A stretch of 64,000 nucleotides of DNA from positions 64,772 to 128,771 of the IMG/VR virus record IMGVR_UViG_3300028048_000077; one strand, 5' to 3'. Positions 4,659 to 51,407 of this stretch are shown here, piece by piece. The position numbers and the translations under genes are program-made. Positions within the stretch are counted from its first letter, which is position 1. The number at the start of each line of letters is the position of its first letter. The notes under the pieces are model-generated. The model was not told the DNA's origin, did not search any database, and was given only the letters and a program-made list of their open reading frames with translations. The DNA comes from a virus (lineage: Duplodnaviria > Caudoviricetes).

Positions 4659-4684
4659 CTCCCTCTACCGAAAGGTAGAGGGAG
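4659..4684. terminator. conserved-stem hairpin (CCCTCTACC family)
   Basis: CTCCCTCTACC-GAAA-GGTAGAGGGAG. Confidence 0.75.
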
Positions 4685-4735: not shown

Positions 4736-7700
4736 ATGGCTGTATTCTTAGATAATCTTAAATATATGAGATTATATAGAACTCAAATATATTTACCAGT
4801 AAAAATGGAATCTAGAAAAACTGGTAGTTTGATTTTCTTGCTTTCTAATAATCCAAATACTGCTTCATTATTGATGAATCATCCTAAAACTATTAACATC
4901 AATAGCTTTATAAGTTATTATGTAGAGAAGAATGTAAATCTCTATCTTAATGAAAGTACTAAGTATTGGGGATTAGAAGAGTCTATTTCTGCCAAAGAAA
5001 GAAGAGAAATTCCAGCGGATCAATTTGGTCTTCCAGAGGAAAGAAAGTATCCTTTGGATACTCCAGAACATGTTCGTTCTGCTATTAAACTCTTCGGTCA
5101 TTGTGAAGAAGATAAGAAACATCAGCTTGCAGTTCGTATTATGAAAGCTGCTAAGAAATTTAATATAGAAATTAAAGAGGATACTGAGGTTTATAAGTAT
5201 GCTCATATGAAATCTATTAAAGAAGAGATGTTAGAGGAAGAAGTAAATTATGAATATAATTCTCCTTCTTTGATAACTCCAAATACAGGTAGTATTACTG
5301 AACAGTATATGACCTACAATGTAGATAATCATACTTATAGAACTTTCTTTGATGAAGATATTGATTCTTTATTAGAAACTACAGATATGAAACTTAGAAA
5401 GATTTTATATGCTGGTAGAATCAAGAATAATAAAGAACAGCTTCTTATCTATGATAAGATTAAAGGTATGCATCCTAATATCAAATATACTTATCTTACT
5501 TTGGATAAGTATAAAGCTAAGAATCTGTTTGTAGATACTTCTCATTATTTGAGTGATTTTGCTAATAAGAATACATATAAACTTGATATAGGATTAAATC
5601 TGTATGCTAAACTCTTATCTAAATTATTCAATGATAATAGATATATGCAGAATGGATATACTAAATTTACAATATTCGTTGATGTAGATGAAGTATATAA
5701 AGATGATGCTACATCTTATGATTTTAGAAAAGATATCAATATCTTATCTTTGATTAATAGATACTTAATTCTTAGAAAAGATTTGAAGTCTGTATTGCCA
5801 CATGATATTGTATTCTTCTCTAAGAATGCATATTTTAAAGTAAACGTAGCTGATCTTGATAAGACTAACCTTATTAAGTTCAAAATGTTTATAAAGAAGC
5901 TAAAAACTAATGATATCGATGACTCAGAGTACACAAATAAGGACTCTCAGGAAGTGCTTGTGACGAAATTTGCCGATAAGCTCGAAAAGAGGGGTATTTC
6001 CCTTGATAATCTCTCTAAAACGGAAAAATTCGCAAATTGGTCAATTAAAAATATAGTTAACCCAGGAATGCATATTGATACTGATTCTAAGAAAAAAGAA
6101 TTAGTAGAAAAAATTCATACTGCTGCTGAGAAGTCTTCTACTGAAGAAGAACTTGAAAAGAATATCGAAGATCAGAATACTGAAGATGAAGTAATGGATA
6201 TCATTCAGGATCTTGAATCAGAAGATAGTGGAGTCAATGTATCAAAAGCAAGAGCTACTCGTATGAGTACTTTGAATCAGAAATTCAGAGGAAAGAAGTT
6301 CAATGGTAAAACCATTGCTGAATATCTGAATACTGAGCAGAAAGATATTCCTAAGGATAATATTCCAATTGATAGTATCAATGAAGATTGGAAGGAAGTT
6401 CATTTTAGTAAGTTCAATGAAACTTATGATTTGGATAATGATATTATCTCTATCTTCAATTCTATGACAGATAAGTCTGCTCCAATTGCAATATTGGATA
6501 TAGATAAAGAAGATAAAGTAACATCTGAGGATTATCTTGAAACTTGGACTGTTAAGTTTGAAGATGTAGATGGTAAACGTCATACTATTAAACTTGATGT
6601 TCCTAAGTTCATTGATAATAGATTTATGATGCTTAGAGGTAACTATAAGACTATTCAGGGTCAGCTTATGCTTCTTCCAGTAATTAAAACTGGTCCAGAT
6701 ACTTCTCAGATTGTATCTAACTATAATAAGATATTTATTCGTAGATATAACCCATCTAATGGTAGTAAAACTACTAGAAAGATGAGTATTCTTACTAAGA
6801 TACTTGATAAGTATGATGGTAAAACTTTTAAAGTATCTATTGGTGATAATGATCTTATTTGTCAGAAGTATGAATTACCTATCGAATATCAAGATTTAGC
6901 TACATCATATTCAAGAATTGAGTTTAATGATGGAAGCTTTATTTCATTTAATCTTGATGAGATGTATGAATTAAGAGATAAGACCAAATCGAGCTTTTCT
7001 ATAGTAAGTAGTATTCCATTATATTATAATGCTAAACTTAAGAAAGTTAGATCTGTTGATATGCATATAGCTCCAAATATCTTAAATATCTTAGAAGATC
7101 ATGCAAGATCAAATGTTGATAAAGAATTATTAGAGCTTATTGCAAATACTAAACCTTCTCAAAAGCTTTCTTATACTACAGCTAGTATTTTGAATACTGA
7201 GATTCCAGTAATTGTAGTTATGGCATTCTCTGAAGGATTGCAGAAATCTATGGAGAAAGCTCATATCACATATAAATTCAGTGAAACTAGACCACCAAAA
7301 GAAGATAAACGTCCATATATTAAATTCAAAGATGGATATCTCCAGTATGATGATACAGTAGATGCTTCTATTCTTATGAATGGATTACAATATGTAGATA
7401 CTGGATTCTATTCTATTAAAGATATAAATGAGAAAGATATGTGGATAGATGCATTGGATAACTTCGGTGGTAGAATTAAAGCAGATGGTTTGGATAACTT
7501 CTATGATCTTATGATTGATCCTATTACTAAAGAAATTTGTGAGTTATATAAACTTCCTACAGACTATGTATCTATACTTGCATATGCATCTGCATTATTA
7601 GTAGATACTAAGTATAATAAACATACTGATATTACTGGTAATAGATATAGAACTAAGGAACTCATTGCAGGATATGTTTATAAAACTCTTGCTACTTCTT

Positions 7701-9337
7701 ATGGTATTTATCAATCTACTAGAAAGAAGAATAAGAAATCATCTGAGTTTTCTATCAAACAATCTGCTGTAGTAGATGCTATACTAAAGGATCCAACTGC
7801 TAGTGATCTTAGTATTCTGAATCCATTACTTGAGATTGAGGCTACAAATGCAGTTTCATTTAAGGGATTATCTGGTATGAACTCTGAACGAAGCTACTCA
7901 CTTGATAAGCGTATTTATGATGAGAGTATGCTTGGAGTTATTGGAACTTCTACAGGTTTTTCTGGTAATGTAGGTATTACTAGACAGGCTACTGTAGATT
8001 CTAGTATTGCTAATACTAGAGGATTCATTAAACAGAATAAGGGGGATAAACTTAATACTCTTAATATGCTTACTGCTACTGAGGCTATGACTCCATTCAT
8101 GACTACTCATGATGATGCAATGCGTATAGCAATGGGTTATATTCAGACTTCTAAACATCAGATGAGAACTAAGAGATCTTCTCCTAACTTGGTTACTACT
8201 GGTATGGATGAAGCTATTCCATATATGACTTCTAATTTCTTCTCATATAAATTTAGAGGAAAGAAAGGAAAAGTAATCTCTGTATCAGATAAGTTCATAG
8301 TATATGAAGATACTGAGACTAAAGAAAGAGGATTCGTAGATCTGGAAGAAAAGACTATGAAGAACTCTGATGGTGGTTTCTATGTAACTCTTAGACTTAA
8401 GCCAAATGTTAAGAAAGGTCAGATTCTTAATAATAATGATATCTTAGCATATGATCCAACTTGTTATTCTAAACAGGTTGGAAATGAAGAAGGTAATGGA
8501 GTTTCTTATAATGTAGGAACTATGGCTAAGATTGCTATTATGACTACAGATGAAGCATTCAATGATTCTACTGTAATTACTAATACATTATCTGAATCCA
8601 TGAGCTCTGATTATTGTGTAGAGAAAGCTAGATATCTTCCTAAGGATACAAATATCTATCATCTTGTACAAAAGGGAATGGAAATTCAAGAGGGTGAACC
8701 TCTTATGATATTCCAGAATGCATTTGAAGAGAAAGATGCTAATACATTATTAAATTCTATTACAGATGCAGATGTAGAAGCTGTAAGTGATCTTGGACGT
8801 ATTCATGTTCGTAGTAAGCTTACTGGTGTAGTACAAGATATTAAAATATTCCGTACTTGTGAATTAGATGAACTTTCTCCTTCTTTAAGAAAACTCGTAA
8901 CTACATATGAGAATAGAATTAAGAAAGAGAAGGCTGAACTTAAGAAAATGGGAGTACAGAATGTAGAAGGATTACTTGATCCAGACTACAAATTAGAGGC
9001 TCAGGGTAAACTTAAGGATTGTTTAGATGGAGTAAAGATATTTGTTTATATTAAGTGCCATGATAGTATGGGCGTAGGAGATAAACTTGTATTCTCAACA
9101 GCACTTAAAGGTGTAATCAAAACTGTTATTCCAGAAGGACAAGAACCATATACAGACTTTAGACCTAATGAAAAAGTAGAAGCATTACTTACTACAGCAG
9201 GTGTAAATGCTCGAATGGTTGGTAGTATAATTCTTAATGGTTTGATTAATAAGATTCTTATAGAAACTGATAGAAAGTGTAAAGAGAATCTTGGAATCAA
9301 ATGGAAGAATCTATATGAAATAGAAGAGAATCAATAA
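4736..9337 (+). CDS. phage multisubunit RNA polymerase beta-like subunit with long N-terminal extension (probably virion RNAP)
   Basis: beta motifs HDDAMRIAMG..Q, LVTTGMD, AFNDS and GVGDKL..ALKGVI..P. Confidence 0.85.
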   Translation: MAVFLDNLKYMRLYRTQIYLPVKMESRKTGSLIFLLSNNPNTASLLMNHPKTININSFISYYVEKNVNLYLNESTKYWGLEESISAKERREIPADQFGLPEERKYPLDTPEHVRSAIKLFGHCEEDKKHQLAVRIMKAAKKFNIEIKEDTEVYKYAHMKSIKEEMLEEEVNYEYNSPSLITPNTGSITEQYMTYNVDNHTYRTFFDEDIDSLLETTDMKLRKILYAGRIKNNKEQLLIYDKIKGMHPNIKYTYLTLDKYKAKNLFVDTSHYLSDFANKNTYKLDIGLNLYAKLLSKLFNDNRYMQNGYTKFTIFVDVDEVYKDDATSYDFRKDINILSLINRYLILRKDLKSVLPHDIVFFSKNAYFKVNVADLDKTNLIKFKMFIKKLKTNDIDDSEYTNKDSQEVLVTKFADKLEKRGISLDNLSKTEKFANWSIKNIVNPGMHIDTDSKKKELVEKIHTAAEKSSTEEELEKNIEDQNTEDEVMDIIQDLESEDSGVNVSKARATRMSTLNQKFRGKKFNGKTIAEYLNTEQKDIPKDNIPIDSINEDWKEVHFSKFNETYDLDNDIISIFNSMTDKSAPIAILDIDKEDKVTSEDYLETWTVKFEDVDGKRHTIKLDVPKFIDNRFMMLRGNYKTIQGQLMLLPVIKTGPDTSQIVSNYNKIFIRRYNPSNGSKTTRKMSILTKILDKYDGKTFKVSIGDNDLICQKYELPIEYQDLATSYSRIEFNDGSFISFNLDEMYELRDKTKSSFSIVSSIPLYYNAKLKKVRSVDMHIAPNILNILEDHARSNVDKELLELIANTKPSQKLSYTTASILNTEIPVIVVMAFSEGLQKSMEKAHITYKFSETRPPKEDKRPYIKFKDGYLQYDDTVDASILMNGLQYVDTGFYSIKDINEKDMWIDALDNFGGRIKADGLDNFYDLMIDPITKEICELYKLPTDYVSILAYASALLVDTKYNKHTDITGNRYRTKELIAGYVYKTLATSYGIYQSTRKKNKKSSEFSIKQSAVVDAILKDPTASDLSILNPLLEIEATNAVSFKGLSGMNSERSYSLDKRIYDESMLGVIGTSTGFSGNVGITRQATVDSSIANTRGFIKQNKGDKLNTLNMLTATEAMTPFMTTHDDAMRIAMGYIQTSKHQMRTKRSSPNLVTTGMDEAIPYMTSNFFSYKFRGKKGKVISVSDKFIVYEDTETKERGFVDLEEKTMKNSDGGFYVTLRLKPNVKKGQILNNNDILAYDPTCYSKQVGNEEGNGVSYNVGTMAKIAIMTTDEAFNDSTVITNTLSESMSSDYCVEKARYLPKDTNIYHLVQKGMEIQEGEPLMIFQNAFEEKDANTLLNSITDADVEAVSDLGRIHVRSKLTGVVQDIKIFRTCELDELSPSLRKLVTTYENRIKKEKAELKKMGVQNVEGLLDPDYKLEAQGKLKDCLDGVKIFVYIKCHDSMGVGDKLVFSTALKGVIKTVIPEGQEPYTDFRPNEKVEALLTTAGVNARMVGSIILNGLINKILIETDRKCKENLGIKWKNLYEIEENQ

Positions 9338-9342
9338 AACTT

Positions 9343-9368
9343 TCCCCTACCCTTAATTGGGTAGGGGA
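9343..9368. terminator. conserved-stem hairpin
   Basis: TCCCCTACCC-TTAATT-GGGTAGGGGA between convergent genes. Confidence 0.75.
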
Positions 9369-9374
9369 TATTTC

Positions 9375-10044
9375 TTATTTTATTCCATATAATTCATTAT
9401 CACTTTCTAAAGTAATTCCTGGTCCTAATTCATTCATAAATAATTTAGTATTATCTACTGTAAAATTTCCATCTATTAAACATTCATCTGCAAAGAATAT
9501 ATCTCCAACTGTATAATTGAAATTAAAATCTCCAGCATTTCCATATAACCATCCATGAATCATCATTATATTATAAATATTATTTGAATTATTATATGAA
9601 TATAAAAAATTTCCATCCAAATACCATTTATATATATTATTATTACAAGTTACAGTTATATTATATATAATATTTGTTTTTATAGAAATATTAGTATTAT
9701 AATGCAAATCACCAATATTTCCACTCCAACCCCATATATACATAATACCATTATATATTCTTATTGCAAGTGTTCCATAATCAGAAAATTGTATCCAAAG
9801 TGTATCAACATATTGACCTACTCTATCTACTAAAAATTTATAATTTAGTGTAAAATTAGTTACATTTCTGATATTAATATATTTATACGTTCCATCATTA
9901 AAATTATCTTTAGCTTTATAATATAAACCGTCTATATTTGAATTAAGAGGTTTAATATCATCATAGGGTTCGCTAAATTTTATGTAATCTCCCCCCCCCG
10001 ATTACTACTTTTCCATTATTAACGAATACTCTATCAAAAGTCAT
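9375..10044 (-). pseudogene. lectin/LamG-like protein gene out of frame at a G9 tract (candidate phase-variable gene, OFF state)
   Basis: AGGAGG RBS and ATG at 10044, 15 codons, then G9 (9991-9999) leading to TAG at 9973-9975; G8 or G11 gives an uninterrupted ORF (222 aa with G8) joining the 9375..9743 ORF. Confidence 0.75.
9991..9999 (-). repeat. poly-G(9) homopolymer tract
   Basis: C9 on the + strand in very AT-rich DNA. Confidence 0.95.
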
Positions 10045-11082: not shown

Positions 11083-12270
11083 TTATACTCCATATTTAAT
11101 ATAAAACTCTATTAATTTAGCTTTATACTCTTCATATCCAATTCCAGCATATCCAATTATTATATGATATAATTCTGATCTATGCCCTTCTGTATTATTC
11201 AATATTTTTTCTATTAAATCAAAAACTTCCTTTAAACAGAACATATATTGATTTATCATATTATTATACATAGAATTAAGATATGATTCTTTTGATTCTT
11301 CTTCCTCAGCTAATTTTCTTTTCTTTTCTTCAAATATTTTTCTTATATAATTATCTGTTTCAATTCTGTTACGTTTTTCCCTCTCTTCTATAATTCTTTT
11401 TAGTTTTTCCTCCTCTTCTTTAATCCTTTTTAGTTTTTCTGCTCTCTTTTTAATTAATTTTTCCTGGCATTCTTTAAATGCCTTTCTAAAAATATTTTTC
11501 TCTTCTTCAGATAAATATTTAAAAGGTCTTAAAAATCTTTCTAATTCTCTATTATTATTTTCATCAAGTTGTTTTCTTAATAATATTCTTCTTTTCGCAT
11601 CAATTTCCTTTCTTTTATCTAATAATTCTTTATAATACTCATTTGTATGATTTAAATTAATTTTTAAAGAATAGTCTTCTAAAACTCTTTTATCATTATT
11701 AATTTTAGATGGATCATCATCAACCAAATCCATAAAATCTAATAACCATTTACCTCTAGTAGGATGCCTAAGTTTTCTTAATGCTTTAGCTTCAATTTGC
11801 CGTATTCTTTCTTTTGATACTCCAAAATGTTTTCCAGTATTTTCCAAAGTTTCCATATTATCTAAAAATCTATACTTTAAAACATTCTTTTCTCTATCAT
11901 ATAAAGTATCAAGTATTATATGTATTCTTGCATTATATTCTTCTTTACAAATATCATTTATCATAACATCTTCAGTATAATAAACATCATCTATTAATTC
12001 AGATATGTACTCATTTTCTTTTAATAAATTTCTTTTATACTTTGATACATTTCTATTTATTAAAAGATTAATAAACTGAGCTGGATAGTTATTCTTTAAA
12101 CCACCTTTCTCTATAAGCTCTTCAACAATATTTTCAAATATATCTTCAGATACATCTGAATACTCTGGAAAATGAGAATCAATATATCCTATAACTTTAT
12201 CTTTAAAGATATTATAAGAATCGATATCTCCTTCCATCATTCCATTAACAATTTTAGCATACGATTTCAT
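11083..12270 (-). CDS. sigma-70 region-4 containing protein with C-terminal coiled coil
   Basis: [43 protein letters not shown] closely matches SigA region 4.2; no clear region 2. Confidence 0.8.
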
Positions 12271-12383: not shown

Positions 12384-12415
12384 TATCCCTGTACCCAACT
12401 AAGGGTACAGGGATA
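12384..12415. terminator. conserved-stem hairpin
   Basis: TATCCCTGTACCC-AACTAA-GGGTACAGGGATA. Confidence 0.75.
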
Positions 12416-14221: not shown

Positions 14222-14257
14222 TGAGGAATTACAAGCCAGTATGTTGGTGATATGATG

Positions 14258-14338
14258 CTAGAAAATTAAGAATTTTATCAATTCTATTATCAGACTTTCG
14301 ATTAAGCCCAATATGAATTGTATTAAAATCTTCATCAT
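14258..14338 (-). CDS. 26-aa amphipathic peptide, type I toxin-like
   Basis: AGAAAGGAGG RBS; MMKILIQFILGLIESLIIELIKFLIF; own promoter motif and terminator. Confidence 0.65.
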   Translation of the reverse strand: MMKILIQFILGLIESLIIELIKFLIF

Positions 14339-14402
14339 ATCATTAACCTCCTTTCTGCTGGCGTGAATAGGGTATAGAGTAGTTGGTGAAGAAGCTATAC
14401 CC

Positions 14403-14425
14403 TATTCATATCTATAGTATATAAC
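14403..14425 (-). promoter_or_regulatory. putative early promoter
   Basis: GTTATATACTATAGATATGAATA on the minus strand; 14-bp inverted repeat TGAATAGGGTATAG/CTATACCCTATTCA directly downstream. Confidence 0.65.
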
Positions 14426-14452: not shown

Positions 14453-14478
14453 TCCCTCTACCCAAATGGGTAGAGGGA
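14453..14478. terminator. conserved-stem hairpin
   Basis: TCCCTCTACCC-AAAT-GGGTAGAGGGA. Confidence 0.75.
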
Positions 14479-20095: not shown

Positions 20096-20120
20096 TCCCT
20101 CTACCAAAATGGTAGAGGGA
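20096..20120. terminator. conserved-stem hairpin
   Basis: TCCCTCTACC-AAAAT-GGTAGAGGGA. Confidence 0.75.
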
Positions 20121-20126
20121 CTTATT

Positions 20127-20519
20127 TTACCACATGTAAGTATTAGGGCTTTCACCATTATCACGTACATCTACATGGCAACCCCAGTCATAAAGACCGA
20201 TTCCATCGAAACCAATCTGCTCACAGTACCATTTGAGCTGTTCTGGAGTATGGCAATATTCATAGTCTGGAGTCTGTACATCTGCTGCTGTTCCATCAAC
20301 ATGCTGAGAATTAGGTACACCACCTACTTCAGCATTATGAGCTGGGCAACGATATGCACAAGAAATCTCAAGTGGACCACCAATCATTTCACGAAGAGCT
20401 TCAAGCTTTTCGAGAAGAAGAGGACTTACCTTATCTGCAGTTTCTGGACCACAATCACAATGACCCTGAGATGCACCATGGCACATCAATTCTTCGGCGG
20501 AAAAATGTTCACTAGGCAT
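20127..20519 (-). CDS. peptidase M15 family Zn peptidase (endolysin candidate)
   Basis: YRCPAHN..VGG..NSQH...AAD and HVDVR motifs. Confidence 0.9.
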   Translation of the reverse strand: MPSEHFSAEELMCHGASQGHCDCGPETADKVSPLLLEKLEALREMIGGPLEISCAYRCPAHNAEVGGVPNSQHVDGTAADVQTPDYEYCHTPEQLKWYCEQIGFDGIGLYDWGCHVDVRDNGESPNTYMW

Positions 20520-20539
20520 TTTTAAAATCTCCTTTCAAT

Positions 20540-20914
20540 TTAAGCAAATGCTGGATGATGCTGAGCTTTCATCTTACTAATATGACTATTTATATTCGCC
20601 ATATGGCGATGAGCATCATTATATTTTTCTCCTTCTGGTGTTTCAGAAGCTTTTAATCCCGTTCTTTTTCTACCATCATTTGTTCTTTGCAAAGCTTTTC
20701 TAGTTTTATCAAGTCTATCTTGAGCTCTTTGTTTCAATTTATCTACTACTTCTTTAGTAAATTGTTTGTAATTATGCTCTTCTTCGAGAGACTCAATATA
20801 ATTTTCAAGAGCGGCAATATAACCAGCAGCATATGCATCCATCACATATTCCTGCTGAGCTTCATTGAGGCTATTCATAATAGCTGTCTCTTTTAATACT
20901 TCATCTAAAATCAT
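20540..20914 (-). CDS. small probable internal head protein
   Basis: acidic N-terminus with LxE sites and basic C-terminus. Confidence 0.5.
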   Translation of the reverse strand: MILDEVLKETAIMNSLNEAQQEYVMDAYAAGYIAALENYIESLEEEHNYKQFTKEVVDKLKQRAQDRLDKTRKALQRTNDGRKRTGLKASETPEGEKYNDAHRHMANINSHISKMKAQHHPAFA

Positions 20915-20925
20915 AATACTCCTCC

Positions 20926-22101
20926 TTACTTATTTGCTGTATGTATGATTAGAGCAAAGTAAAACTTAATACTCTTTTTATAAGCATTTTTAGTAGCTAA
21001 TCTCTTCTTACGAGCAGCATACCTAGTAGAATAAGTATCTAACCAACCTTCTACTATTTCATCTATCTTTAATAAATGTTTGTTGGCAGTATTAGGTTTT
21101 GGAGTAATAGTATATGTAAGGAACTGAATATCCGCTACTTCCTTAGTAGACTTAGGCTCAGCACAATATGTATAAATCATATTACGAACCACAATCTTAA
21201 TATCTCCAATAGTATGTTTATCATTTATGATAGACTCTAAGATTTGTTTTACTTCTTCTGCTCTTACTAATGAAGAAGACGCCATCTTACAATACTTATA
21301 TTCTATGGTATTAGATTGAATCTTAGCCATAGCTTTATCTATAAACTTTTCACACCGTAAAGAATCCGAATCTGCTAAATGGAAATCTTCAGGCATCTGA
21401 TTTTCAGAATTGTATACTATATAATCTTTATTCTCATATGCTTTATAGTATTCTTTAGCAATATTCTTGATAATAGATTTGATTCTATTATGAAGCTGTT
21501 GTACTAAGTATGCTATATCTTCATCTGAGAAAGATTTAAACATTCTTTCATAACTTTCAAGCCATTTATCAGAGATAGTCTTAACAGTAGCTATAACTGT
21601 TTTAGACTTCTTAAATTCAAATGACTGAGAAAGATTATTCATTACATATTCCATAATCTCTCTATATTTAGAAGGTTCTGCAACTGGGAACATTGCATAG
21701 TGAATAGATGGATAAAATTTACCACTGAATGCTAAATACAAAGCTGCTAACTGAGCATCTTTAGTATTCTTTTTCATTATATAATACCTAATCAAACTCA
21801 TGATTAGAATTGTAGGCTCATCCTTAGCATATCTAGGATTAAAAGCTGCTATATTCCAATAATAAGTTTCAGATATAGCTTTCTTAACTTGTACTCTATC
21901 TATATCAACTGCAGAATGTAATTCATCTGCATCTATACTACCATATGCCATTCTATCATATGGGCCAGTATCGAATAATTGTTGGTTTCTTCTATCTACA
22001 AATTTAGAGATGCATTGTTTAAACTTAGCAGCTCTAGAGCTCATTTTCTTTTCTACTATTGGATATAGAATCTTAAGAATAGCAGTGGTATTATTTTTCA
22101 T
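20926..22101 (-). CDS. hypothetical late protein
   Basis: 391 aa; GAGGTG RBS; late motif at 22116-22128. Confidence 0.7.
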   Translation of the reverse strand: MKNNTTAILKILYPIVEKKMSSRAAKFKQCISKFVDRRNQQLFDTGPYDRMAYGSIDADELHSAVDIDRVQVKKAISETYYWNIAAFNPRYAKDEPTILIMSLIRYYIMKKNTKDAQLAALYLAFSGKFYPSIHYAMFPVAEPSKYREIMEYVMNNLSQSFEFKKSKTVIATVKTISDKWLESYERMFKSFSDEDIAYLVQQLHNRIKSIIKNIAKEYYKAYENKDYIVYNSENQMPEDFHLADSDSLRCEKFIDKAMAKIQSNTIEYKYCKMASSSLVRAEEVKQILESIINDKHTIGDIKIVVRNMIYTYCAEPKSTKEVADIQFLTYTITPKPNTANKHLLKIDEIVEGWLDTYSTRYAARKKRLATKNAYKKSIKFYFALIIHTANK

Positions 22102-22173
22102 CTCTTATTCACCTCTTATAGCATTGTCCAAAAAAGCACATTTTAATCATATACTCTTAAAGAAAAAATTAAG

Positions 22174-22192
22174 CATATACTATATATATGAA
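22174..22192 (+). promoter_or_regulatory. putative early promoter (sRNA1)
   Basis: CATATACTATATATATGAA. Confidence 0.65.
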
Positions 22193-22311
22193 AAGGTACC
22201 CATTCCTTTTTGTGTTTTCCATTATTAATTATGAAATTTAATTTCATAATTAAACTCCTTTCATTATAAAATATCCCATTGGGGAGGGGGTATATTATCC
22301 CCTTATTTTTT
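22189..22311 (+). ncRNA. candidate small RNA 1 with anti-RBS/anti-AUG segment
   Basis: promoter motif, no sense ORF with RBS, TTCATAATTAAACTCCTTTC, terminator AGGGGG..CCCCTTATTTTTT. Confidence 0.55.
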
Positions 22312-22318
22312 ATATAAA

Positions 22319-22372
22319 TTGTAATATTCGGAAAATTTAAACATATACTATATATGTGAATAAAAGGATTCA
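22319..22372 (+). repeat. 54-bp promoter/5'-end block duplicated at 35824-35877
   Basis: 53/54 identity by manual alignment. Confidence 0.9.
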
Positions 22373-22455
22373 CCTCCTTTCTGTTTGTTCTTCTCATCTC
22401 CTTTCAATTCACCCATATGGGGAGGGGGCCTCATCAGCCCCCTTATTTTTTTTTT
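22357..22455 (+). ncRNA. candidate small RNA 2 with 16S rRNA 3'-end-like anti-SD
   Basis: promoter at 22342-22362; GGATTCACCTCCTTTCT plus a second CATCTCCTTTC; terminator AGGGGGC..GCCCCCTTA-T10. Confidence 0.6.
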
Positions 22456-22463
22456 CATAATAA

Positions 22464-22492
22464 ATCCCTCTACCCAATTAGGGTAGAGGGAT
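22464..22492. terminator. conserved-stem hairpin
   Basis: ATCCCTCTACCC-AATTA-GGGTAGAGGGAT. Confidence 0.75.
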
Positions 22493-22501
22493 AATCTTAT
22501 T

Positions 22502-22972
22502 TTATTTATCGTAGTTTTCAAGAGTAAGCTTAACCAGAGTACCATCAGCCTTGATTTCCTCTACAGGAACCTTATGCCAACAAAGCTTCTTGATATCTTC
22601 AAGATCAAGAACAATAGCTTTCTTTTCACCAATAAATGGATAAGTAACATAAGAAACATTTATACCATTAGCATAAACATTTACTCTTTTCTTACCTGGC
22701 TGAACAGGTGGATATTTAGTTTCATCTTTACCAGTTACTTCAGGAGTAGCGGAAACTTTTTTAGGCTCTTCCTTTTTAACTTCTGGTTTAGGTTCTTCTT
22801 TCTTAACTTCCTCTACAGGAGCTTTTGCTTCCTCTTTAGTAGCCTCAGCTTTTACTTCCTCTTTTTTAGGAGCTTCTGCCTTAACTTCCTCTTTAGGAGC
22901 CTCAGCTTTTACTTCTTCTTTAGGCACTTCTGCCTTAACTTCTTCTTTAACTTCATTTTTTTCCTTAGACAT
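22502..22972 (-). CDS. protein with N-terminal EEVKAEAPK repeats and small C-terminal domain
   Basis: AAGGAGG RBS before ATG at 22972; about 5 imperfect 9-aa repeats. Confidence 0.7.
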   Translation of the reverse strand: MSKEKNEVKEEVKAEVPKEEVKAEAPKEEVKAEAPKKEEVKAEATKEEAKAPVEEVKKEEPKPEVKKEEPKKVSATPEVTGKDETKYPPVQPGKKRVNVYANGINVSYVTYPFIGEKKAIVLDLEDIKKLCWHKVPVEEIKADGTLVKLTLENYDK

Positions 22973-23088
22973 CAATTTTTCCTCCTTATCATAAATATCA
23001 ATCAATCCTTCGAAGGCTGATATGATATCTATACAATCATTATTTTTTATATTATTATTTAGAATGAGTTTAAATTCATTCATATAAT

Positions 23089-28392: not shown

Positions 28393-30126
28393 TTATTCTT
28401 CCTCTGTAATATCAGTATAACTATTATACTGTACATCAGCTACAAGGAACTGATTGGTTAAGAATACAGTACCCATGATCTTATTAATTGCCTCTAAGAT
28501 ATTAGAATCAGACTTGATAGAAGAAAGTACAGTATTATCATACTGCTTAGTACGAATATTCATAGGCATCTCATGATTAAACATATCTTCAATCAATCTG
28601 ATTACTTCATCATCTGCTTTTTCTTTATTGAAATAGAGACGAGCATAAAGATTCTCATAAGCATCTACAATAATCTGATAAATATTATACTCTTCATTAT
28701 CATCACTATCACAAAGAAGCTCATCAAAAGCTGCATACCCCTCAAAGTTGGCACCACGACCATAACCATTAATAGCAGCAGAACGGCAGTTTAATACAGC
28801 ATCTTCTACCAAATCTCTAAGAGCATCTCTATCAGTAAGAGAAATACCACCTACAAAGATCTCAACGAGATTAGATTTGAATGCATTAATACGACGCTTC
28901 AAAGTAGCAATCTCTACAATGTTCTCTCTAGTCTCTTCAAGAGAAGCAAGCTTATCTTTCATATCCTCAAGACGAGAATTATAGAGATCAGATAGAGTAC
29001 CATCTTCATTATGCATCAGAACAGGATTAATGAATTTAGTATTATTAGAAGTAGAGATTACTGCTTCTGCATGACCACAGAAATTATGAATATTTTCAAT
29101 AGTAGGAGCTAAACCTCTCTCCTGATCAGCCTTTAATAATGCTGGATCAATATACTTGCGAATAAGTTTAGCACCAGACAGATATGCTAAATCCATCAAA
29201 TAATCAGTCTTACTAATATTAGTAATAATATTCAATGGGTACATTACTCTCTTTGCAGGAGGCATCTGAGCCATACCTTTAACAAAGTCATCAATAACAC
29301 TAATTACATCTGTACCAATACGAGGGCATACAATTATAGTAGGAACTACTTTATCAAATTCTCTCTTAGAAGCAGGTTCAGTAATATTATCATATATTAC
29401 TTTTTCCATATATGCAGAAATCTCAATAGTATCAATAGGATCCTCAAAGATATAAATCTCAGGATTTCTGATTTCACAAGTATGCTTCTCTGTATTATTG
29501 ATAAGAGCTACATCACCATATCCAGAAGGAATAGTAAATCCATCATGCTCTCTTGTCATAGTTTCTGTTCCACCAGATACTCCAACATCAATGAATACAT
29601 CCATACCATACTGCTTATAAATATCAGTAATCAGATTAGCAATGTACTCATTATTATCTGTAGAAATCATAGCAATCTTATAGATATCTTCTACAGTAGT
29701 TTCAATTCTATTGGATTCAATAATCTCAATAGCTTCATTAACTGCAGTATTAAAATCAGCAATAAGTTGCTTATCAGAAATATTAAATTTCTTACTTGCG
29801 TCACAGAGATTCTTAAAAATCTCATATGCAAGAATAACCGCAGACGTAGTACCATCACCAACTGTAGTAACAATTCTACGAGTAATATCTACAAGATTCT
29901 GTTTCATTGTAAACTCAATTGGACCAGTAAACATGATTTCCTGAAGAATAGTATGACCATCCTTAGTATATCTAGCAATATCTTTCTCTTTACGATATGC
30001 AGTGTTTACTCCATTAGGACCAAAAGATTTAGTAAGAGTATCTGCAAGTACTTTAAGTGTAGCAGTCTGTACTACTCTAAGAGAATCTTTATTTACAATA
30101 TTAGAACGAACTTTGAATTTACCCAT
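28393..30126 (-). CDS. GroEL-like phage chaperonin
   Basis: SFGPNG, TKDGHTIL, VGDGTTSA, VGG..DLVEDAV motifs. Confidence 0.92.
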   Translation of the reverse strand: MGKFKVRSNIVNKDSLRVVQTATLKVLADTLTKSFGPNGVNTAYRKEKDIARYTKDGHTILQEIMFTGPIEFTMKQNLVDITRRIVTTVGDGTTSAVILAYEIFKNLCDASKKFNISDKQLIADFNTAVNEAIEIIESNRIETTVEDIYKIAMISTDNNEYIANLITDIYKQYGMDVFIDVGVSGGTETMTREHDGFTIPSGYGDVALINNTEKHTCEIRNPEIYIFEDPIDTIEISAYMEKVIYDNITEPASKREFDKVVPTIIVCPRIGTDVISVIDDFVKGMAQMPPAKRVMYPLNIITNISKTDYLMDLAYLSGAKLIRKYIDPALLKADQERGLAPTIENIHNFCGHAEAVISTSNNTKFINPVLMHNEDGTLSDLYNSRLEDMKDKLASLEETRENIVEIATLKRRINAFKSNLVEIFVGGISLTDRDALRDLVEDAVLNCRSAAINGYGRGANFEGYAAFDELLCDSDDNEEYNIYQIIVDAYENLYARLYFNKEKADDEVIRLIEDMFNHEMPMNIRTKQYDNTVLSSIKSDSNILEAINKIMGTVFLTNQFLVADVQYNSYTDITEEE

Positions 30127-35668: not shown

Positions 35669-35846
35669 TGTAAATTCCTCCTTTTTAGAGTATATATAAA
35701 TACTCTGTTGATTATCATTGTTATTCTAGCATGCCTATTGGAATGCAATTACATTATAGTTGAATTAGCAAAATGTAATATTAAAAAAATATTTAAAGTT
35801 TAACATATCTATTTGTACTATTTTTGTAATAGTCGGAAAATTTAAA

Positions 35847-35867
35847 CATATACTATATATGTGAATA
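35847..35867 (+). promoter_or_regulatory. putative early promoter (sRNA3)
   Basis: CATATACTATATATGTGAATA. Confidence 0.65.
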
Positions 35868-35957
35868 AAAGGATTCATCCTTATTCAAGTTCATGTTTTT
35901 CTATCCTTAAAAGGAATAGGATGTGTTTAGGCCACAACACACTCCTATTCTTTTTTT
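35862..35957 (+). ncRNA. candidate small RNA 3
   Basis: 5' hairpin TGAATAA..TTATTCA; linker TTCATGTTTTTCTATCCTT (complement of AAGGA-N9-ATGAA); terminator GAATAGGA.TGTGTT/AACACACTCCTATTC-T7. Confidence 0.55.
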
Positions 35958-35965
35958 ATAATTTA

Positions 35966-35991
35966 TCCCTCTACCCTAACTGGGTAGAGGG
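35966..35991. terminator. conserved-stem hairpin
   Basis: CCCTCTACCC-TAACT-GGGTAGAGGG. Confidence 0.75.
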
Positions 35992-41559: not shown

Positions 41560-41631
41560 TGTATTCACCTCTTATGCTAAAGTCAAAATCACAAAAATAT
41601 AAAGGCAGCCCCATAAGAGGCTGCCTCATAT

Positions 41632-46333: not shown

Positions 46334-46402
46334 TTATATATGGGCTAGGTTTCTAGCCCATTATTTTTTGTGATTTTGACTCTAGTATAAGAGGTGAATA
46401 CG

Positions 46403-47204: not shown

Positions 47205-47234
47205 TATCCCTCTACCCCGAAAGGTAGAGGGATA
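47205..47234. terminator. conserved-stem hairpin
   Basis: TATCCCTCTACC-CCGAAA-GGTAGAGGGATA. Confidence 0.75.
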
Positions 47235-47257: not shown

Positions 47258-47280
47258 GTTATATACTATATATATGAATA
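47258..47280 (+). promoter_or_regulatory. putative early promoter
   Basis: GTTATATACTATATATATGAATA plus 5' hairpin TGAATAGATATA/TATATTTATTCA. Confidence 0.65.
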
Positions 47281-47333
47281 GATATAGAGCAATTATATTT
47301 ATTCAAAGTATATAACGAAAGAAGGTGTTTACC

Positions 47334-47432
47334 ATGTTTCTAATTAGTAGGATGAAAGATATACTAGACATTTTGATTCTTATATCTAACATCATAGAAC
47401 TAATAGAAATATTGAAAATCTTCTGTAATTAA
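47334..47432 (+). CDS. 32-aa amphipathic peptide, type I toxin-like
   Basis: GAAGGTG RBS; MFLISRMKDILDILILISNIIELIEILKIFCN. Confidence 0.55.
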   Translation: MFLISRMKDILDILILISNIIELIEILKIFCN

Positions 47433-47543
47433 TTGTTACTAAAATAATAAAGTTATATACTAAAGAAATTACTTATCTTTAACAAAAACTTCTTCTTGGG
47501 ATAAGATAATATATAGATACTACGAAAGAAGAAAATAAACTTA

Positions 47544-47573
47544 TACCCCTCTACCGTAATGGTAGAGGGGTAC
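47544..47573. terminator. conserved-stem hairpin
   Basis: TACCCCTCTACC-GTAAT-GGTAGAGGGGTA. Confidence 0.75.
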
Positions 47574-51377: not shown

Positions 51378-51407
51378 TATCCCTCTACCAAAAATGGTAG
51401 AGGGATA
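51378..51407. terminator. conserved-stem hairpin
   Basis: TATCCCTCTACCA-AAAA-TGGTAGAGGGATA. Confidence 0.75.

Follow-up and report, generated by a model that had tools for sequence, protein, structure and literature searches.

The locus studied here raises the question of what, if anything, is encoded in a gap of 400 nt (22102-22501) that separates two minus-strand genes of a phage and in which two copies of a promoter motif point against the flanking operons. The window, by which we mean the whole 64,000-nt stretch of DNA that was analysed and to which coordinates refer unless another sequence is named, is the right half of a 128,771-bp IMG/VR virus record with a completeness of 52% by CheckV. 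The phage sequence is present in bovine gut and related bioreactor metagenomes, is AT-rich (30% G+C) and has strong Firmicutes-type Shine-Dalgarno sequences (SDs). Relatives with proteins 45-60% identical to those of the phage are found on contigs of 230-340 kb, which points to a jumbo-type phage. No T4-like markers were seen in it, and the phage records of GenBank yielded only a trivial 88-nt match in Bacillus phages, located inside the 193-aa gene. The genes of the setting are as follows.

20926-22101, minus strand: 391-aa gene, heading an operon that contains an M15 peptidase/endolysin-like gene
22502-23083, minus strand: 193-aa gene, the last in an operon that contains the primase
4736-9337, plus strand: 1533-aa protein with a marginal RNAP beta (Rpb2_6) domain and DUF6582
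11083-12270, minus strand: 395-aa protein with a sigma-70 region 4 domain, sitting behind an early promoter
28393-30126, minus strand: 577-aa Cpn60-like chaperonin

Contigs of two RNA libraries (runs X4 and X16), which show neither strand nor transcript ends, cover the flanking genes and not 22102-22500. Within the 193-aa gene, low-complexity Lys/Glu/Val repeats at 22760-22815 draw deep unrelated contigs in all four runs, with depths of up to 1,700, and this deep coverage is a mapping artefact and not expression.

A directional promoter class of early type

A sequence-only reading of the gap had described two back-to-back units, each running from an early-promoter motif to a terminator, and the strings and positions that it quoted were all found as stated, including the promoter motifs, GGATTCACCTCCTTTCT, CATCTCCTTTC and a 20-nt anti-initiation string at 22243-22262. 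The sequence CATATACTATATAT, present on the plus strand at 22174-22187 and 22342-22355, is an exact copy of the phage's main promoter motif, and the exact 14-mer occurs in three copies, one for each of the units 1-3 described below. When up to two mismatches were allowed, the motif was found 18 times in the window as against 6.4 +/- 2.4 times in shuffled sequence, and none of 100 shuffles reached 18. A strict form, defined as TATACTATA followed by three bases and then RTGA, has 27 sites in the whole record, 21 of which are followed within 25-123 nt by an SD-led ORF in the same orientation, this orientation following the strand of the motif, whichever strand that is. The motif is a real, directional class. 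Its transcripts tend to begin with a hairpin, which lies in the first 50 nt and begins no more than 5 nt from RTGA at 19 of the 27 strict sites, and the 5' hairpins of promoter-class transcripts have a mean energy of -10.3 kcal/mol compared with -4.4 kcal/mol for shuffles. No enrichment of the motif was seen in a distant 231-kb relative (G001).

The motif can be read as TATACTAT-(6N)-G and is close to the experimentally mapped early promoter of the virion RNAP of AR9, a Bacillus jumbo phage, which reads AAATATATATTAT-(6N)-G+1 (PMC5312081); because of this closeness the label 'early' is reasonable by analogy. Like the early promoters of AR9/PBS1, those of the phage consist of a long, conserved stretch rich in A and T, have their purine start 6 nt further on, lack a -35 box and stand in many copies ahead of non-structural genes (PMC5312081). 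They differ in the core, which is TATATTAT in AR9/PBS1 and TATACTAT here, and possibly in the reader, which is the virion RNAP there; the present phage also encodes a sigma-70 region 4 protein. The RNAP beta-like domain encoded by the phage was counted in favour of the early-promoter reading. The promoters of the gap, and the block that leads into the 391-aa gene, are the following.

22162-22189, plus strand: promoter 1, an A/T-rich upstream block and the exact core at 22174-22187; predicted start at G 22190, by analogy with TATACTAT-(6N)-G
22319-22357, plus strand: promoter 2, within a block of about 54 nt (22319-22372) nearly identical to 35824-35877; predicted start at G 22358
22102-22145, minus strand: conserved block (leader or promoter-like) before the 391-aa gene, unchanged in strains where the slot is filled differently

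Further sequences of a regulatory appearance were noticed in the record. About 30 kb before the window start (G000:C1:34620-34870, minus strand), an early promoter is followed by a leader of about 250 nt and an SD-led gene; a perfect 15-bp long-range stem pairs the first 15 nt of this leader with a site about 150 nt downstream, and the region is a candidate for a structured leader with a regulatory role or for another non-coding RNA. The promoter-like block before the 630-aa gene (35700-35800, minus strand) has a TATAAT box, is near-invariant where the protein is 81-90% identical, and is a candidate promoter of a different, perhaps late, class. The block at 22102-22145 is common to two further genes (w41575, minus strand; w46387, plus strand): the 391-aa, 563-aa and 267-aa genes share TTTTG(G)AC followed by ATAAGAGGTGAATA abutting the start codon, at 22102-22145 (minus), 41569-41610 (minus) and 46350-46400 (plus). 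Two of the three ATAAGAGGTGAATA genes are identical at 26 of 28 positions over the start region, and the block may mark a second promoter or regulatory class.

Three promoter-to-terminator units

Behind the three exact promoter copies, folding and terminator prediction delimited the following elements.

22188-22311, plus strand: unit 1, predicted non-coding RNA of about 120 nt, terminator 97 nt from the start
22188-22213, plus strand: 5' hairpin of unit 1, by folding
22225-22253, plus strand: A-U hairpin of unit 1, by folding, followed by a single-stranded CU-rich tail
22284-22311, plus strand: intrinsic terminator of unit 1, a G-rich stem (scanner site 22284-22304) and then a T tract
22356-22458, plus strand: unit 2, predicted non-coding RNA of about 100 nt
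22358-22386, plus strand: 5' hairpin of unit 2, followed by a pyrimidine-rich single-stranded linker and the terminator
22422-22455, plus strand: intrinsic terminator of unit 2 (scanner site 22422-22444), also by folding
35824-35957, plus strand: unit 3, promoter and 5' hairpin as in unit 2, with a different single-stranded linker; predicted start near 35863

All three predicted RNAs have a 5'-terminal hairpin, an unpaired pyrimidine-rich linker and an intrinsic terminator. A 3' module composed of CTCCTTTCA, a short spacer, CCCAT..GGGGAGGGGG and the terminator is common to units 1 and 2, and a 5' module to units 2 and 3, their first 54 nt or so being nearly identical and their bodies unrelated. 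Unit 3 has only a UCCUU core in its linker, a long terminator stem with a U7 tract and a fold z of -4.7. The terminator scanner reported four sites where 0.5 were expected, counting 22284-22304, 22422-22444 and a bidirectional hairpin at 22464-22492. No sense ORF with an SD was found in units 1 and 2, the plus frames of which read through the terminators, and among all promoter sites only units 1-3 meet a terminator in less than 100 nt without a credible ORF. An Rfam search at a permissive E-value gave best scores of 16-29 bits against gathering thresholds of 40-65, and no tRNA or tmRNA was found in the units by ARAGORN. Units 1 and 2 point against the flanking minus-strand operons, and all three units have the same kind of neighbours, on one side a family hairpin at the end of a minus-strand operon and on the other the conserved promoter-like block of the following operon. 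Taken by their sequence, units 1-3 look like discrete plus-strand non-coding transcription units with an early-type promoter. The tandem arrangement originally described was confirmed, with the promoter beyond shuffles and the terminators detected by the scanner, as was the lack of an RBS-led sense ORF in the body of either unit.

The minus strand of the gap

As the plus strand carries anti-SD strings, the minus strand carries SD-like ones, and the opposite reading, namely that small SD-led genes on the minus strand are functional and possibly encode a type I toxin with the plus-strand RNA as antitoxin, had to be considered. A usable start stands behind one of the three minus-strand SD-like strings, as GAAAGGAG-N7-ATG, and opens this frame:

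22143-22247, minus strand: mini-ORF of 34 codons behind GAAAGGAG-N7-ATG, judged to be no gene

The two minus-strand SD strings in unit 2 offer no usable start, one abutting an ATG with zero spacer and the other being without a start codon. About half of the mini-ORF, its last 16 codons, is promoter 1 with the A/T-rich block upstream of it, read in reverse complement. An 84-codon frame (22143-22397, minus strand), which stays open across the AT-rich gap, shows this peptide motif again at its crossing of promoter 2, and the repeated peptide of that frame is the complement of the two promoters. No promoter before and no terminator after the mini-ORF was found in the minus orientation. In a 98%-identical contig from another sample, an additional A after 22223 stops the mini-ORF after codon 8, and the same insertion falls in the single-stranded linker of the unit 1 plus-strand RNA. 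Because the mini-ORF overlaps the promoter complement, is without a minus-strand promoter or terminator and is stopped in the variant, we concluded, on sequence grounds, that the plus-strand units are the functional reading, and we consider functional minus-strand genes highly improbable. A type I toxin-antitoxin system was rejected on the same three points. Another candidate, the minus strand of unit 2 as a mimic of a CRISPR repeat (a hairpin and ATTGAAAG), was searched for in 185,579 genomes and rejected as well, since no arrays were found; there were six single matches in unrelated taxa, about the number expected by chance.

The 16S-like stretch of unit 2

The sequence-only reading had taken part of unit 2 for a mimic of the 3' end of 16S rRNA.

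22366-22382, plus strand: 16S-3'-end-like stretch GGATTCACCTCCTTTCT, loop and descending arm of the 5' hairpin of unit 2

This stretch is one inserted base away from the Firmicutes 16S 3' terminus (the B. subtilis sequence, which may not be that of the host), and its 12-nt core is a full anti-SD. Within the predicted fold, the ascending arm finishes with GGA, the loop is UUCACC, and the descending arm, UCCUUU(C)U, pairs with the purine-rich leader AAAGGA; the unpaired probability over UCCUUUC is about 0.2-0.5. Unit 3 keeps the hairpin by means of other bases (UCCU with AGGA, UAUUCA with UGAAUA) and for this reason has no anti-SD. Since the stretch belongs to the class-wide 5' hairpin, which is formed by different bases in unit 3, the 16S resemblance is explained by a structural requirement common to the promoter class and is not conserved. 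The proposed mimicry was not supported, the stretch being the partly buried loop and 3' arm of a hairpin of the kind present in 19 of the 27 class transcripts, and the mimic is not kept in the paralogue.

A wider role built on this resemblance, in which unit 2 imitates the 16S 3' end and, together with unit 1, competes generally as an anti-SD so that translation of host (or defence) mRNAs ceases, is in our judgement very unlikely. In its favour are the near-identity to the Firmicutes terminus and the complete anti-SD core. A generic competitor would, however, hit the phage itself, because the phage's own genes carry the strongest SDs (AAAGGAGG, n=19 copies), and the cassette is absent from close strains. 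On these same two grounds the idea of a translational takeover system was not supported, the cassettes being missing or replaced in close strains. Very unlikely, too, is a version in which unit 2, joined by unit 1, genuinely mimics the ribosomal anti-SD; it would be an early phage RNA that competes with 16S rRNA for SDs, thereby reprogrammes the choice of mRNAs for translation, and sits on a mobile cassette gained and lost among strains.

An accessible CU-rich motif and its candidate target

Two related elements lie further downstream in units 1 and 2.

22395-22405, plus strand: CU-rich accessible motif of unit 2 (CATCTCCTTTC), homologous to 22252-22262 in unit 1
22236-22263, plus strand: anti-initiation-region block of unit 1, which includes CTCCTTTC at 22255-22262

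The string CTCCTTTC occurs three times in 230 nt, where about 0.003 copies are expected from base composition; two of the three are copies of one module, and the three copies are beyond compositional chance. It stands just before the terminator in units 1 and 2 with an unpaired probability of 0.8-0.9, and unit 3, which has a weaker UCCUU core in the corresponding position, leaves it likewise unpaired (0.8-0.9). Folding supported the postulated accessibility of the CU-rich segments for the linker motifs of units 1 and 2, and not for the 16S-like UCCUUUC.

In unit 1, 26 of the 28 nt at 22236-22263 are complementary to G000:C1:24403-24430, which comprises the SD, the AUG and codons 2-4 of a 138-aa gene (L023:1499-1915, minus strand) situated 62 kb from unit 1. 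This gene is the second in an early-promoter operon made up of a 66-aa gene, the 138-aa gene and a gene for a GyrA-like topoisomerase subunit. As the null for targets we used the similarity among real translation-initiation regions (TIRs) of the same genome, and by this TIR-versus-TIR null a match of 26/28 is reached by 1 in 7,626-10,011 TIR pairs. The gapped score of unit 1 against the 138-aa TIR has a per-pair p of 1e-4, corresponding to 0.014 expected among 142 TIRs. Cofolding in which intramolecular structure was charged ranked the 138-aa TIR first of 142 for unit 1 and second of 142 for unit 2, a ranking that is weakly discriminating, with z = -2.2 for unit 1 and small energy margins. When duplex energies of the whole RNAs were computed for 302 candidate starts, shuffled RNAs did as well, cis sites excepted.

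Over 14 nt, unit 2 is exactly complementary to the SD region of the M15 peptidase gene, the start of which lies within 20505-20550 (minus strand), and over 13 nt to the start of the 138-aa gene; it also has a 16/18 match to a micropeptide start. All three are within the TIR null; TGAAAGGAG occurs only four times in the record, at places that include unit 2, the M15 peptidase SD region and the 138-aa gene. The best target matches of unit 3 all fell within the TIR-versus-TIR null too. For each unit RNA, the strongest complement is the opposite strand of its own locus, that is, minus-strand read-through. Among the phage TIRs, the start of the 138-aa gene is the one statistically credible trans target that the sequences suggest for unit 1, and the match could equally be left over from a gene start that was once duplicated, without working as a seed. 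The claim that unit 1 contains the complement of a full initiation region was borne out, with a match beyond the TIR null, and the proposed comparison with phage initiation regions yielded the 138-aa TIR for unit 1 and nothing beyond chance for units 2 and 3.

Strain variability of the cassette slot

Comparison with related strains concerned the following segments.

22146-22464, no strand: segment of 319 nt holding units 1 and 2, missing in a related strain
22464-22492, no strand: bidirectional family hairpin, which ends the minus-strand operon of the 193-aa gene and backs up unit 2
35967-35991, no strand: family hairpin closing unit 3, which terminates the upstream minus-strand 472-aa gene
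4661-4682, 12387-12412, 14454-14477, 20097-20119 and 22466-22490: examples of hairpin family copies
35967-35991, 47208-47231, 47547-47569 and 51381-51404: further examples of the family
14230-14425 (minus) and 47262-47460 (plus) in the window, and L022:1-263 (minus): micropeptide cassettes
G000:C1:56529 (minus), 56783 (minus) and 38227 (plus): micropeptide cassettes outside the window

DNA contigs of two other samples (runs X2 and X5) join 22145 to 22465, an exact deletion of 319 nt, and a strain whose 391-aa protein is 84% identical has a gap of 74 nt at the cassette position. In two further strains, L022 (97% identity) and L021 (91%), the slot is occupied by the family hairpin and an equally oriented early promoter, which in L022 drives an SD-led gene for a hydrophobic micropeptide of 42 codons. 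One strain has unit 1 almost unchanged and diverges right after promoter 2. In its unit 1, a 5' stem pair is G-U where the window has A-U, a loop is altered and the terminator stem is made longer by an additional C, all of which fits the fold; the spacer has also gained 12 nt. Unit 3 is missing from three relatives in which the flanking gene is 81-90% identical, the hairpin there abutting the conserved promoter-like block. As the units are missing or replaced in close strains, with neighbouring genes 81-97% identical, they are dispensable, accessory and strain-variable cassettes. An IMG/VR search with the 5' block and the 3' module of the units gave no matches, no relative of the 391-aa protein was found in IMG/VR, and the sole metagenome contig found (L020) is without the upstream region. 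The proposed search of related phages for the same architecture came out negative, and no conservation or covariation could be read from the units, which are absent or replaced in all relatives found.

The hairpin family, which consists of CCCTCTACC, a loop and GGTAGAGGG, has 17 copies in the record, and in seven of them an early promoter follows 19-34 nt after the hairpin to give a composite module resembling the promoter-early stem-loop (PeSL) elements of T4-type phages. A family of micropeptide cassettes was also observed, each with an early promoter, a 5' hairpin of 13-17 bp, a strong SD, an Ile/Leu-rich ORF of 26-42 codons and a terminator; g56783 and g79192, which belong to it, are clearly paralogous and almost the same in their terminators, and in L022 such a cassette sits in the sRNA slot.

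Proposed function and alternative explanations

The explanation that we favour, tentatively and with somewhat less than even confidence, is that the units are accessory early sRNA genes, the products of which use an exposed pyrimidine-rich linker to pair with their targets as antisense RNAs, unit 1 probably being aimed at the start of the 138-aa gene. Architecture, promoter class, terminators, the absence of coding capacity, accessibility, the complementarity of unit 1 and strain variability were computed here, and transcription, start sites, targets and effect of the units are what we infer. The early-type promoter would transcribe each unit against the neighbouring operons, and transcription would stop at the unit's own intrinsic terminator after about 95-120 nt. 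The linker with its UCCUU(UC) core could then serve as an antisense seed on purine-rich translation-initiation regions. The RNA of unit 1 would pair with the SD, the AUG and the first codons of the phage's 138-aa mRNA, and the resulting duplex would block ribosome loading and could trigger duplex cleavage. Minus-strand read-through RNA across the gap would be a perfect cis target. Recombination at the repeated hairpin and promoter modules would allow strains to gain, lose and swap cassettes. The earlier suggestion of early antisense RNAs that occlude ribosome-binding sites stands in part, for the predicted units, the exposed anti-SD and the unit 1 match agree with it, whereas the targets of units 2 and 3 are within chance.

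The main rival, to which we give a distinctly smaller but still serious chance, sees in the units empty or decayed shuffling cassettes, a promoter and a terminator whose cargo has been lost or reduced to remnants, for instance a gene start copied in inverse orientation, and which are perhaps transcribed into an RNA without a regulatory role. The content of the slot, which is different in each close strain that was compared (it may be empty, hold a micropeptide gene or have some other body after the same promoter), the absence of unit 3 from three relatives, and the near-identical promoter and 5' block of units 2 and 3 with their unrelated bodies all speak for it. So do the real small ORFs of many neighbouring cassettes and the 17 hairpins, seven directly before a promoter, which resemble the indel-mediating PeSL modules of T4 (PMC2839356, PMC4122927). 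Yet the bodies have no residual similarity to any micropeptide cassette, units 1 and 2 retain the CU-rich motif and the terminator module while the remainder has diverged, the three CTCCTTTC copies far exceed composition, and every unit has a well-formed, correctly oriented terminator.

It is rather unlikely that the units work as operon insulators. In that case the opposing promoters and terminators would keep read-through out of the following operon with its different timing (391aa / M15 lysin / 774aa, or the 630-aa gene), both because polymerases collide and because the read-through RNA meets a perfect cis-antisense partner, and the body sequence would matter little. The common border position of all three units, from the hairpin to the promoter-like block of the next operon, and the strongest complementarity, to the opposite strand of the own locus, would suit such a role. 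In close strains, however, the hairpin alone suffices, and insulation explains the position of the units but not their motifs, leaving aside the accessible CU-rich repeats, the distant 26/28 match and the tandem arrangement. Accessory antisense sRNA genes remain our preferred reading.

If the RNAs are real, small antisense regulators would exist as exchangeable cassettes in uncultivated gut jumbo-type phages, capture of an inverted gene-start copy would be a possible origin of a phage sRNA, and PeSL-like hairpin and promoter modules would shuffle non-coding cargo along with small genes. The RNA of unit 1 and the 138-aa gene start make a clean, testable pair. On present evidence, the units reveal no new takeover of host translation.

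Comparison with known systems

Firmicutes have sRNAs with C/U-rich seeds, such as RsaE/RoxS, the RNAIII-type RNAs with UCCC loops, and FsrA. These resemble the units in having an accessible pyrimidine stretch aimed at SDs between a 5' hairpin and a terminator; they differ in that their C-runs lie in loops, in contrast to the U-rich anti-SD copies seen here, and no homology was found.

Phage antisense RNAs that block translation include c4 of P1/P7, sar of P22, OOP of lambda and as15 of PAK_P4, the last of which lies opposite the endolysin gene (PMC12197685). Like the units, they are short, have their own promoter and terminator and are proposed to pair with phage ribosome-binding sites (PMC12197685), and c4 acts in trans on a distant gene start, as proposed for unit 1. 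The units, which are predicted only, differ from them in lacking any sequence or Rfam relationship, in being tandem and strain-variable and in having a jumbo-phage early-type promoter. The sRNAs of the jumbo phages 201phi2-1 and phiKZ have a start site directly before a terminator (PMC11512511, PMC8244752); as here, they are intergenic, shorter than 250 nt, composed of a promoter and a terminator without a CDS, and encoded by giant phages with their own multisubunit RNAP. Transcript mapping revealed those sRNAs, one of which is conserved across genera, whereas the units are predicted from sequence and unconserved between strains.

The PeSL cassettes of T4-type phages bound accessory cargo and mediate its shuffling (PMC2839356, PMC4122927). 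They share with the present modules the composite of terminator hairpin and early promoter and the indels and replacements between close relatives; they belong to another lineage and have other motif sequences, the present cargo is non-coding, and no recombination intermediates were observed. The parallel is an analogy, not a homology. Phage antisense RNAs (PMC12197685) and jumbo-phage sRNAs (PMC11512511) are already known kinds, of which the units would be a predicted member.
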